From a virus (Duplodnaviria; Caudoviricetes), in IMG/VR virus record IMGVR_UViG_3300032030_000005, positions 160,001-224,000 of that record: a stretch of 64,000 nucleotides of DNA; one strand, 5' to 3'. The notes below the pieces were generated by a model. The model worked only from the letters and a program-made list of their open reading frames with translations. It did not search any database and was not told the DNA's origin. The position numbers and the translations under genes are program-made. Shown in pieces: positions 30,833 through 33,282 of the stretch. The first letter of the stretch is position 1, and the number at the start of each line of letters is the position of its first letter.

Positions 30833-30877
30833 AACATAAATATATCAATATATTGCTCAAGGAAATATTAGAAAGGA
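30833..30877 (+). promoter_or_regulatory. late promoter plus conserved 5' leader (copy 1)
   Basis: AACA-N6-TA (predicted +1 at 30844), then ATCAATATATTGCTCAAGGAAATATT and GAAAGGA SD; near-identical leader at 31864-31906. Confidence 0.7.
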
Positions 30878-30883
30878 TAAATT

Positions 30884-31684
30884 ATGAAAGTAATTAGAAA
30901 AATGATTAATAAGATTAAGAGAAATTTTAAAATTGACACATTTGTAATAGCTCTTACTCTTACAGTCATGATAGTATTTTTGGTATATAATTTTAGAGCT
31001 CCAGAGTTAAGTGATCACTCATATATGGAAGCTGCTAAAATAATGCCAGTTACTACTAATGAAACTAGTTTAGTTTCTAGTATCACAACAAGCAATACAA
31101 ATACAACATTCACTACAACAATGAGTCCAGTCACTACAACTTCTATAGAAACAACAACTGCTATGACAACTACAGTCATTGAAACAACAATTGTTGAAGA
31201 AATCCCCGTACCTGAAATAGTTGTTGAAGAAAATAACTATGTAGAAGAACCACCTATCGAAGAAAATGTTTATATTCCAGAGGAAGAACCAGAAGAAGAA
31301 GTTTTTTATGAAGAAGAGGTTATAGTAGAACCTGAAGAAGTCATAGAAGAAATTTCTGACTCTGATAAACATTTATTAGCAGAAATTGTTTTCTTTGAAG
31401 CAGGTAGTGATTGGATATCTATTTATGATAAGGCCCAAATTGTAAATGGTGTTATGAATCGAGTAAATGATTCTAGATTTCCAGATACAATTTATGATGT
31501 TCTTACACAGCCTTATCAGTTTTCGGGATTCTGGCCAGGTATGTATGACTATGGCACACAGTATGGTCCAATAACATTAGCATGCTATGATGCTGTAGAT
31601 TATTACTTTGAACATAAATCAGAGTTTGGTAATGAAAATTCATGGTATGGTGATGGATATCAAAATCACTTTTACTATCAGTGA
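30884..31684 (+). CDS. membrane-anchored cell wall hydrolase (SleB/Hydrolase_2 family)
   Basis: N-terminal TM helix, T-rich and E/P-rich linker, LAEIVFFEAG...VMNRVNDSRFPDTIYDVLTQPYQFS. Confidence 0.88.
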   Translation: MKVIRKMINKIKRNFKIDTFVIALTLTVMIVFLVYNFRAPELSDHSYMEAAKIMPVTTNETSLVSSITTSNTNTTFTTTMSPVTTTSIETTTAMTTTVIETTIVEEIPVPEIVVEENNYVEEPPIEENVYIPEEEPEEEVFYEEEVIVEPEEVIEEISDSDKHLLAEIVFFEAGSDWISIYDKAQIVNGVMNRVNDSRFPDTIYDVLTQPYQFSGFWPGMYDYGTQYGPITLACYDAVDYYFEHKSEFGNENSWYGDGYQNHFYYQ

Positions 31685-31699
31685 GAATATAAGAAAAGC

Positions 31700-31790
31700 A
31701 TATTGTTAAGAAGATTGCATAATATATGTAAAATTTAAATCTTCTTAAAAATATTTGTCTTGAGCTTATAAAACTAAAATATATTGATAT
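31700..31790 (+). ncRNA. conserved structured 3'-UTR element (copy 1), complementary to own 5' leader
   Basis: Stem TTAAGAAGAT/ATCTTCTTAA enclosing TGCATAATATATGTAAAATTTAA, then AATATTT..CTTGAGC..AATATATTGAT. Confidence 0.65.
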
Positions 31791-31803
31791 AAAAAATATG
31801 CGG

Positions 31804-31849
31804 AAAAGAAGTGTTAAACCCTGTTGGGGTTTAACAGCTTTTTTTTTTT
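31804..31849 (+). terminator. intrinsic terminator
   Basis: TGTTAAACCC/GGGTTTAACA stem followed by a long T-run. Confidence 0.8.
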
Positions 31850-31863
31850 CTAAATTTTTATAT

Positions 31864-31906
31864 AACAAAAATATATCAATATATTGCTCTCAAATATTGG
31901 AAAGGA
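31864..31906 (+). promoter_or_regulatory. late promoter plus conserved 5' leader (copy 2)
   Basis: AACA-N6-TA (predicted +1 at 31875), then ATCAATATATTGCTCTCAAATATT and GAAAGGA SD. Confidence 0.7.
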
Positions 31907-31911
31907 ATATT

Positions 31912-32952
31912 ATGATAAATTTTGAGAATCTAAAAGCAAAAAAGACAAAGTATATTATTGTTATAATATTAATAATAATTATATTAATTGCTTTAATTAT
32001 ATTTAGTGGAAAATTAAGCGACGCCAATATTGATAGTGATGAAAATTTAAATGATGTAACAACAACATTCGTTGAAACAACTATTGCTACTTCAAATGTA
32101 ACAACAAGTAATGTAACAACAACTATTAATACAACTGTTACAAATGAAACAACTTTAGAAACTAGTGAAAATACTACTACATCTGAAACAGTTCTTCCAG
32201 TAACTAACGTTCCTGCTACAGAAACTTCAACACCTGTTGAAGCTAAGAATGAACAGCCTTCAACTGAAGCACCTGTTGAAGTAGTAACTACAGTAGCTAA
32301 TACTACAACAACTATTGAAACTTCTAATGAAGTAGTCAATCCAATTGACAAAGCTGAAGATATTTTTAATGATACTAAAGATATAATGGTAGATGTCATT
32401 AAAGATACTAAAGATACTTTATTAGATATTGAAAGTATTGCTAAAGAAGTTATTGATGGTAAATGGGGTTCTGGTGCTGATCGTAAGAAGAAGTTAACAG
32501 ATAATGGTTATAACTATGATGAAGTACAGGATAAGGTTAATGAAATTATTAAAGAATCAAAACCTGTAAATAGTAATGTTTCATTAGATGGTAGTAATAT
32601 GTCATATGTTAAAAACTTTACCAGAGGTACTTATTATGGTGAATATGGATATGATGTATGCGGTGGTTCAGGTAGATCACTTATAGATTGTTCTTGGGGT
32701 GACGGAACTGTAAGAGGTTCTATAGCATCTTCATATTTATATAGTAACTATGGTTATAACTATAATGGTAAAAGAACAATGGTATACTTAGAAGTATATG
32801 GTTGCCCATCTATGACCGGTTATTATTACTTAGATGACTGTGATGCTGGTAACTGGAGTGTAATTGATTTTTATTATAGATATTATAGTAACTGTCCATT
32901 CCAAAATGCTGGTGTATTAACAAGTATTGATTGTTATATCGTAAATTATTAA
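31912..32952 (+). CDS. membrane-anchored cell-wall protein: TM, T-rich linker, CW_7 repeat, 3D/DPBB-like C-terminal domain
   Basis: Start ATG 31912 after SD; IAKEVIDGKWGSGADRKKKLTDNGYNYDEVQDKVNE is CW_7-like; TYY...IAS...YYLDDCDAG..SVIDFY resembles the 3D domain. Confidence 0.8.
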   Translation: MINFENLKAKKTKYIIVIILIIIILIALIIFSGKLSDANIDSDENLNDVTTTFVETTIATSNVTTSNVTTTINTTVTNETTLETSENTTTSETVLPVTNVPATETSTPVEAKNEQPSTEAPVEVVTTVANTTTTIETSNEVVNPIDKAEDIFNDTKDIMVDVIKDTKDTLLDIESIAKEVIDGKWGSGADRKKKLTDNGYNYDEVQDKVNEIIKESKPVNSNVSLDGSNMSYVKNFTRGTYYGEYGYDVCGGSGRSLIDCSWGDGTVRGSIASSYLYSNYGYNYNGKRTMVYLEVYGCPSMTGYYYLDDCDAGNWSVIDFYYRYYSNCPFQNAGVLTSIDCYIVNY

Positions 32953-33001
32953 TAATTATATGAGGATTAACTTAAATTTTATATGTAAACATACATATAC
33001 A

Positions 33002-33083
33002 GAGTGTTGATTGCATAATATGAAATGCAAAATTTAAAATCAACCTCATAATATTTGATAGAGCTTATTACAATATATTGATA
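33002..33083 (+). ncRNA. conserved structured 3'-UTR element (copy 2), complementary to own 5' leader
   Basis: Stem GAG.GTTGAT/ATCAAC.TC enclosing TGCATAATATGAAATGCAAAATTTAAA, then AATATTTG..AGAGC..AATATATTGAT. Confidence 0.65.
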
Positions 33084-33121: not shown

Positions 33122-33165
33122 AATGTAAAGAGTTCTTTAAACTTATAAGAACTCTTTACAAATTT
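33122..33165 (+). terminator. hairpin terminator
   Basis: TGTAAAGAGTTCTT/AAGAACTCTTTACA stem followed by T-rich sequence. Confidence 0.7.
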
Positions 33166-33208
33166 ATTTTTAAATTCACAATTAACAAATTATTGTGAAA
33201 ATAGAAAT

Positions 33209-33282
33209 GACTCAGTAGCTCAGTCGGTAGTAGCACTACACTTTTAATGTAGGTGTCGTGGGTTCAATTCCCACCTGGGTCA
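33209..33282 (+). tRNA. tRNA-Lys(UUU)
   Basis: Cloverleaf; anticodon arm CTACA-CTTTTAA-TGTAG; no encoded CCA. Confidence 0.92.

Follow-up and report, generated by a model that had tools for sequence, protein, structure and literature searches.

Two tandem peptidoglycan-hydrolase genes of a jumbo phage are predicted to give mRNAs in which the 5' leader pairs with the gene's own 3' untranslated region (UTR), so that each transcript would be closed end to end. The genes lie in a 64,000-nt stretch (the window) that covers positions 160,001-224,000 in one contig of 305,865 bp and 27% G+C (IMG/VR record IMGVR_UViG_3300032030_000005). Comparison with homologous loci argues strongly that the pairing is formed at the RNA level, on the sense strand, and has been kept by selection; we also strongly infer that the two units are members of a family of 5'/3'-UTR frames reserved for genes of membrane-anchored peptidoglycan hydrolases in gut and rumen phages of low-GC hosts. 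The best overall explanation, with a probability of about 0.55, is that these are end-to-end closed mRNAs built on a selected RNA frame with a role like that of the leader/3'-UTR helix of Bacillus subtilis hbs.

Leader and 3'-UTR pairing in the window

In the proposed structure, the first ~25 nt of each leader would form three stacked helices (H1-H3, ~25 bp) with the 3' UTR just before the terminator, leaving the Shine-Dalgarno sequence (SD), the open reading frame (ORF) and a conserved 3'-UTR hairpin inside a loop of ~1 kb (Table 1). The motifs and coordinates of both leaders and 3' elements, taken from a first-pass annotation of this DNA, were all correct on re-reading, and the transcription starts predicted there (30844 and 31875) are exactly those at which the AACA-N6-TA motifs would place them. 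The middle helix differs between the genes (GCTCAAG/CTTGAGC in gene 1 versus GCTCT/AGAGC in gene 2), and the closing helix ends 0-2 nt from the SD in both genes and in the orthologous locus L331 of a 265-kb phage. The outer stem of the 3'-UTR hairpin covaries across the same three units (GAAGA/TCTTC in gene 1, GTTGA/TCAAC in gene 2, GGCGA/TCGCC in L331). Part of the H1 complementarity is automatic, since CAATATATTG within it is itself a perfect palindrome, which three of the four sites contain in full and the fourth with 9/10 matches.

Duplexes of the 24-26-nt leaders with their own 3' UTR had energies of -21.8 kcal/mol (gene 1) and -19.3 kcal/mol (gene 2), versus a mean of about -9 ± 2 kcal/mol for 1000 dinucleotide shuffles, none of which reached the observed values (z -4 to -6.5). 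When each leader was compared with 9408 genome windows on both strands, trivial antisense matches being set aside, its best partner was its own 3' UTR. The full predicted mRNAs (1005 nt for gene 1, 1294 nt for gene 2) were folded by minimum free energy (MFE) and partition function; the MFE structures of both hold all three helices, with pairing probabilities of 0.70-1.0 along the length of leader 1 and, for leader 2, of 0.74-1.0 at nt 1-23 and 0.35 at nt 24. For nine control genes of the same genome, of similar length and with intergenic flanks, the mean 5'-UTR/3'-UTR pairing probability was 0.00-0.25.

The two window units are paralogues arranged in tandem, and their leaders are near-identical; the leader 15-mer occurs exactly twice in the 305,865-bp genome, i.e. 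at these two genes. The earlier description of the pairing as gene-specific needs to be qualified, as discrimination is slight: cross-pairing between genes 1 and 2 is weaker than cognate pairing by just 0-4 kcal/mol. Leader 2 lies ~90 nt from 3' arm 1 (31750-31898) and is also complementary to it (-20.1 kcal/mol); in read-through RNA their pairing would enclose terminator 1 in a large hairpin.

A search for the exact leader 15-mer in IMG/VR gave at least 118 matches, all in unrelated coding sequence, and no match to the region was obtained when 50,697 phage records were searched by BLAST. Long-window RNAduplex runs over-extended the pairing and were uninformative. A raw 5'/3' complementarity scan of all genes of three genomes was not discriminating, its top hits being repeated terminators and promoter look-alikes. 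Near-identical intrinsic terminators of the CCCTTAAGAG...CTCTTAAGGG type recur genome-wide (G000 151.8-152.9 kb, window ~51-105, other spacers) and produce spurious 5'/3' complementarity for some genes.

Homologous loci and covariation

Homologues were gathered by protein-based searches of IMG/VR, metagenomes and genomes. The closest relative is the 265-kb phage, in which the gene order at L331 is syntenic with the window (997-aa baseplate-like protein homologue, CW_7 hydrolase, tRNAs); gene 1 is an extra cassette relative to this phage. After its AACA-N6-TA motif the L331 leader reads ATCAATG-TAAGGAA-tgc-TTTTAAATATT-AGAAAGGA, and the 3' UTR reads AATAatgTTTAAAA-c-TTCCTTta-ttat-CATTGAT. The layout matches that of the window: there are three helices, the 3' side has an internal loop, and the pairing adjoins the SD AGAAAGGA; H1 (ATCAATG/CATTGAT) is shorter on both sides, and H2 (AAGGAA/TTCCTT) is wholly unlike H2 of the window. 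A pattern scan for further members of the jumbo subgroup found only three contigs of the 265-kb phage.

In gut and rumen phages of 60-170 kb the orthologues have a transmembrane (TM) anchor, a Thr-rich linker, a Cys motif and either a SleB-like or a DPBB-like catalytic domain; each smaller phage carries one cargo type only, and the downstream gene is conserved among them. A Ruminococcus metagenome-assembled genome includes a contig with one homologous locus. Nine sequence variants in the smaller phages keep a 10-16-bp helix of the 5' leader with the pre-terminator 3' UTR, the 5' arm lying ~35-47 nt before the ATG (by eye) and the 3' arm at most ~10 nt before the terminator stem. The arm pairs are ACAGTAATTCC/GGAATTACTGT, ACAGTAATCC/GGATTACTGT, ACAGTAATTTCC/GGAAATTACTGT, ACAGTAGTCC/GGATTACTGT (with a G.U pair), GCGTGAATCC/GGATTCACGC, GCGTGAATTTCCCC/GGGGAAATTTCACGC, GCGTGTTCCC/GGGAACACGC, GCGTTGAATTTCTCT/AGAGAAAATTCAACGC and GCGTTGAAATTTCTCT/AGAGAGAAAATTCAACGC.

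Selected pairing with compensatory change, first proposed from the two window genes, is borne out by L331 and about nine further variants. The ACAGTAA-type and GCGTGAA-type helices differ at four positions by double, fully compensated substitutions; helix ends are matched (CCCC with GGGG, CUCU with AGAG), as are indels, in that runs of one, two or three U face runs of one, two or three A; and in L325 an A-U pair of its relatives is replaced by G.U. Among 13 representative loci, cognate leader/3'-UTR duplexes had a mean energy of -26.6 kcal/mol versus -14.4 ± 4.8 kcal/mol for non-cognate duplexes (pairs from different families), and 0 of 20,000 permutations reached the cognate mean. Covariation among homologues, which the first-pass annotation had proposed to look for, was found: the arm sequences change yet stay complementary.

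Full-length folds of six relatives gave closure at P ~0.9-1.0, and the arm or leader motif was found once per complete genome examined, solely at the hydrolase gene. The leaders of the relatives also contain a GNRA-loop hairpin with covarying stems (CCA/TGG, GTCA/TGAC, GTTCA/TGAAC, GTCC/GGAC, GGCG/CGCC). The pairing frame occurs both with the AR9-type motif and with TTGAC-N17-TATAAT promoters. The three-helix version of the jumbo phages is likely homologous to that of the smaller phages, which has one or two helices, since gene family, order of parts and 3'-side loop are the same. Two results were set aside: MAFFT with RNAalifold on the 3' UTRs recovered the terminator alone, because of poor alignment, and a 'helix' with three U.G pairs at L224 has the SD of the next gene as its 3' half.

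Other features of these loci were noted. A conserved TGGCA-loop hairpin (AATTGAnnTGGCAnnTCAATT) with covarying stems is found in the 3' UTRs of L119, L123, L126, L127, L128, L194, L197, L199, L227, L304 and L336, and in these loci a GAAAATA motif is conserved ~10 nt before the 3' arm; a sigma-54 (-24/-12) reading of TGGCA(C/A)-N5-TTGC applied to four loci only and is probably coincidence. In rumen phages with ~40% G+C (L195/L226, L196/L231 and L225), in which closure is absent, the hydrolase gene and the gene before it each have at their 3' end the direct repeat CAATCGTT(A/G)TAG, after which comes a terminator. A Cys-rich motif, THYIH..CRW..CSECNP, lies between the linker and either catalytic domain in the smaller-phage hydrolases (L119-L128, L193-L199, L227 and others) and is absent from both window proteins. 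L197 and L198 (IMG/VR 3300011008_000029 and 3300011005_001126) have an in-frame TAG inside the Thr-rich linker of the hydrolase, and interrupted frames were also seen in the hydrolases of L127 and L340; pseudogenes, frameshifts or TAG recoding could explain these.

Transcription units and gene products

Two beta-like RNA polymerase fragments are encoded on the contig, together with one that is beta'-like. In AR9, late promoters follow the consensus AACA-N6-T(A/G), whose final base is the start site (PMC5312081). The motif stands at most 100 nt upstream of 59 of the 255 genes of the 305,865-bp genome, compared with 21-27 for control patterns, and as AACA-N6-TA it precedes both window leaders as well as the L331 leader; in two smaller related phages no enrichment of the motif upstream of genes was found. 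Each hydrolase gene appears, from its promoter-like motif and terminator, to be a monocistronic late transcription unit, and the arm and terminator positions agree with the earlier placement of the pairing inside the unit, upstream of the terminator. The hairpin after gene 2 was missed by a consensus scan and is less certain as a terminator than that of gene 1. A tRNA gene (33209-33282) follows ~50 nt past this weak terminator-like hairpin, and the syntenic place in the 265-kb relative holds tRNA-Lys, tRNA-Asn and tRNA-Gln; with the tRNA so close behind a weak terminator, and syntenic in the relative, hydrolase mRNA and tRNA may be co-transcribed.

Table 1. Features of the two hydrolase transcription units (window coordinates).
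Feature	Position	Strand	Details
AACA-N6-TA motif, gene 1	30833..30844	+	last A = predicted +1 of gene-1 mRNA
Leader 1, 5' arm	30844..30869	+	reads ATCAATATATT/GCTCAAG/g/AAATATT; H1 30844-30854, H2 30855-30861(62), H3 30863-30869
SD and coding sequence (CDS), gene 1	30870..31684	+	SD AGAAAGGA 30870-77; CDS 30884-31684
3'-UTR hairpin 1	31710..31744	+	GAAGATT...AATCTTC, inner TTGCAT/ATGTAA with G.U pair
3' arm 1	31750..31788	+	H3' 31750-56 (AATATTT), H2' 31758-65 (CTTGAGC 31759-65), 12-nt 3'-side internal loop, H1' 31778-88 (AATATATTGAT)
Intrinsic terminator, gene 1	31812..31848	+	11-bp stem and T run
AACA-N6-TA motif, gene 2	31864..31875	+	predicted +1 of gene-2 mRNA at 31875
Leader 2, 5' arm	31875..31898	+	H1 31875-85, H2 31886-90, H3 31891-98
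SD and CDS, gene 2	31899..32952	+	SD GGAAAGGA; CDS 31912-32952
3'-UTR hairpin 2	33006..33044	+	GTTGATT...AATCAAC, inner TTGCAT/ATGCAA
3' arm 2	33050..33082	+	H3' 33050-57 (AATATTTG), H2' 33060-64 (AGAGC), 7-nt loop, H1' 33072-82 (AATATATTGAT)
Terminator-like hairpin, gene 2	33125..33171	+	AT-rich stem, interrupted T run

The products are hydrolase-type proteins of 266 aa and 346 aa. The gene-1 product combines a TM anchor with a Thr/Glu-rich linker and a Hydrolase_2 (SleB-like) domain; in the gene-2 product, TM anchor and Thr-rich linker are accompanied by a CW_7 repeat and a Cys/Tyr-rich C-terminal domain of ~120 aa. The latter domain had no Pfam match and no PDB sequence match; its AlphaFold model had a mean predicted local distance difference test score (pLDDT) of 53, and Foldseek returned weak matches (E ~0.1) to MltA, expansin and other DPBB folds. 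The earlier view that the RNA frame surrounds different cargo therefore applies to the C-terminal domains, which do differ, but not to the TM anchor and Thr-rich linker, which are common to both. A listed 384-aa ORF from 31798 has its start within the gene-1 terminator and lacks an SD.

RNA structure, DNA element or chance

The pairing is very probably an RNA structure, as judged from the placement and variation of the arms. The 3' arms lie upstream of terminators and the 5' arms (by eye) downstream of AACA-N6-TA in the jumbo phages or of -10-like hexamers in the others. All non-Watson-Crick pairs found in the helices are G.U pairs of the sense strand (L325 arm and GNRA hairpin, gene-1 3' hairpin, L341 5' hairpin), and no A.C pairs were found. 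The covarying GNRA hairpins, the insertions in the 3' arms, the missing recombinase and the synteny of the locus all argue in the same direction. A DNA element, with the inverted repeats acting as recombination sites of an invertible or mobile cassette or as paired operators for a DNA-binding protein, is very improbable, although the whole gene is flanked by inverted repeats, H1 of the window contains the palindrome described above, and gene 1 is an extra cassette when set against the 265-kb relative. The L331 H1 is not palindromic, on which ground the palindromic-operator reading of H1 was dropped; the 3' arms contain insertions of 4-12 nt that an RNA internal loop would tolerate but that break the geometry of a recombinase site; neither the units nor their neighbourhood contain a recombinase or transposase; synteny of the locus holds between the jumbo phages, and the downstream gene is kept in the smaller ones; and the arms, in which G.U is tolerated, drift freely yet stay complementary, unlike a protein site.

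It is still more improbable that the complementarity is a functionless relic of duplication or a product of chance in an AT-rich genome. Tandem paralogy with near-identical leaders would suit such an origin, as would the many weak inverted repeats in AT-rich spacers (204 pairs in 2.9 kb) and raw complementarity scores that are not extreme. Duplication yields direct repeats, however, not inverted ones; the shuffle statistics and the genome-wide partner search single out the own 3' UTR; and about 12 sequence variants are all complementary at the same relative positions.

Proposed role and competing explanations

The 14-bp 5'/3'-UTR helix of B. subtilis hbs mRNA, which lies off the SD, modulates cleavage of the leader by RNase Y and thereby determines the fate of the mRNA (Braun, Durand & Condon 2017, PMC5737220). 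By analogy, we tentatively propose for the phage mRNAs a similar mechanism of protection or licensing, somewhat short of an even chance as a mechanism in its own right. The helix would bury the 5' end and the leader, in the jumbo phage from the predicted +1, and the buried leader would be shielded from 5'-end-dependent and endonucleolytic decay of the RNase J1/Y type. Because the protecting strand is transcribed last, only complete mRNAs would be protected, and long life and expression would be reserved for transcripts that are complete and terminated. Where the helix adjoins the SD, as in the jumbo-phage version, it may also tune initiation. This model fits the anatomy best, in view of the low-GC hosts, a helix off the SD in all members and a helix that runs from the predicted first nucleotide. 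A 3'-truncated model of mRNA 2 has the leader AUCAAUAUAUU folded onto its own SD and AUG (31900-31916, within 31875-31916), which could be an alternative conformer that keeps nascent transcripts silent until the 3' arm has been made; in the full-length prediction for mRNA 2 the SD is not freed.

Several observations weigh against closure with an hbs-like role. A lone 13-bp helix ranks at about the 90th-95th percentile genome-wide and is no outlier in these AT-rich genomes; the case rests on covariation and conserved position. The full-length MFE structure of L331 retains H1 alone, and H2 and H3 of this locus consequently rest on their complementarity. Closure is not visible in some homologues (L195/196/225/226/231, L326, L354 and L305), chiefly a group with 37-40% G+C together with L326 and L354. 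The relatives have a local hairpin at the likely 5' end, and protection of the 5' end can hence not be the whole role of their long-range helix. Finally, that the effect would stabilise rather than repress is a guess.

The first-pass annotation had likened the units to hok and aapA. On such a model the closed mRNA, its SD sequestered, would be translationally inert, and slow 3' trimming would free translation, delaying a dangerous wall hydrolase. Closure of the 5' end by the 3' end formally resembles the tac/fbi stem of hok, a long-distance 5'-3' stem that closes the full-length mRNA (PMC9841398); the helix ends next to the SD in the window and L331, a membrane-tethered hydrolase is plausibly harmful if made early, and in gene 2 the probability of an unpaired SD, as predicted by thermodynamic modelling, rises from 0.23 in the full-length to 0.56 in the 3'-truncated RNA. 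In gene 1 the predicted change is in the opposite direction (0.80 closed versus 0.44 truncated), and about nine relatives have ~25-45 nt, with a separate hairpin, between the end of the 5' arm and the SD. Neither a leader ORF nor an antisense gene nor a ucb/dcb-like alternative pairing was recognised at the phage units, and the cargo consists of enzymes of 266-346 aa, not of small toxins. No AACA-N6-TA placed for antisense transcription was seen at the arms by eye, and an antisense-promoter reading of the 3' arms was rejected for want of the motif at the right distance. We consider this lock unlikely, and as an account of function the original comparison is not supported.

A smaller chance still is given to the helix being a processing or decay site for host RNase III, by which the mRNA would be excised from read-through RNA or its expression limited. 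The near-continuous duplex of ~25 bp in the window would suit that enzyme, the pairing of 3' arm 1 with leader 2 is possible in read-through RNA, and icaR offers a precedent in Firmicutes: the 3' UTR of this Staphylococcus aureus mRNA pairs through a UCCCC anti-SD motif with the SD and blocks initiation, with RNase III cutting the resulting duplex (Ruiz de los Mozos et al. 2013, PMC3868564). At 10-16 bp, however, the relatives' helices are short for this enzyme, a search for a phage-encoded RNase III found none, and the phage 3' arms, unlike that of icaR, contain no anti-SD and leave the SD uncovered. Excision from a polycistron is also not obviously needed, given the promoter-like motif and terminator that accompany each unit.

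A broader view has the 5' and 3' UTRs as one split RNA domain, made up of 5' hairpin, closing helix, GNRA hairpin and 3'-UTR hairpin, and as a new cis-regulatory class for the membrane-tethered wall hydrolases of phages that infect Gram-positive gut bacteria. It would act as checkpoint or timer of lytic-enzyme production, e.g. through a bound phage or host factor or by sensing that the transcript is complete; we hold this to be possible, though well short of an even chance.

Comparison with known systems

To our knowledge, pairing between the start and the tail of an mRNA is rarely documented in bacteria or phages, and few cases are backed by phylogenetic covariation. In searches of Rfam 15 no described family covered these elements: the tRNA alone was matched in the window region, and nine related loci gave no match at E <= 0.1; limited literature searches and Rfam gave no phage example of such pairing. 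Closure of a bacterial mRNA through its 5' and 3' UTRs is already known; for phages we came across no account of it. The conserved pairing family occurs in phages of ~60 kb up to 306 kb, is kept despite a change of transcription machinery and goes with a single class of potentially self-destructive enzymes. If its function is confirmed, it would offer a new handle on post-transcriptional control of wall-degrading enzymes in Firmicutes phages, and a compact natural mRNA-closing module for studies of decay and translation in Gram-positive bacteria.

Flanking sequences that pair and bracket a long RNA are found in the processing stalks of rRNA operons and in the RNase III sites of phage T7. Those are processing signals in polycistronic precursors, of stable RNA or of early mRNA, whereas the phage units described here apparently have their own promoter and terminator, and shorter helices. 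With icaR they have in common the Firmicute setting, the pairing of an mRNA 3' UTR with its own 5' UTR and a duplex that is a potential substrate of RNase III; the phage arms, in contrast, lie upstream of the SD and involve leader nt 1-26, and no C-rich, UCCCC-like anti-SD motif was found in the 3' arms, so that SD pairing of the icaR type is absent. The likeness to hok and aapA1 consists in a long-distance 5'-3' stem that would close the mRNA of a cell-endangering product, and is an analogy only, with no sequence similarity; the phage cargo is no small toxin, and the hosts differ, these being phages of Gram-positive bacteria.

The closest parallel is hbs, with which the phage units share a low-GC Gram-positive setting, a monocistronic mRNA and a leader/3'-UTR helix before the terminator with the SD uncovered; a helix of at least 10-15 bp outside the SD, as in an hbs-type closure, is found in them. 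There is no homology to hbs in sequence or structure, and the element described here is carried by phages and dedicated to wall-hydrolase genes. It differs further in being a multi-part frame of 5' hairpin, GNRA hairpin and 3'-UTR hairpin with phylogenetic covariation, and in having, in the jumbo phage of the window, a helix of ~25 bp that begins at the predicted +1.

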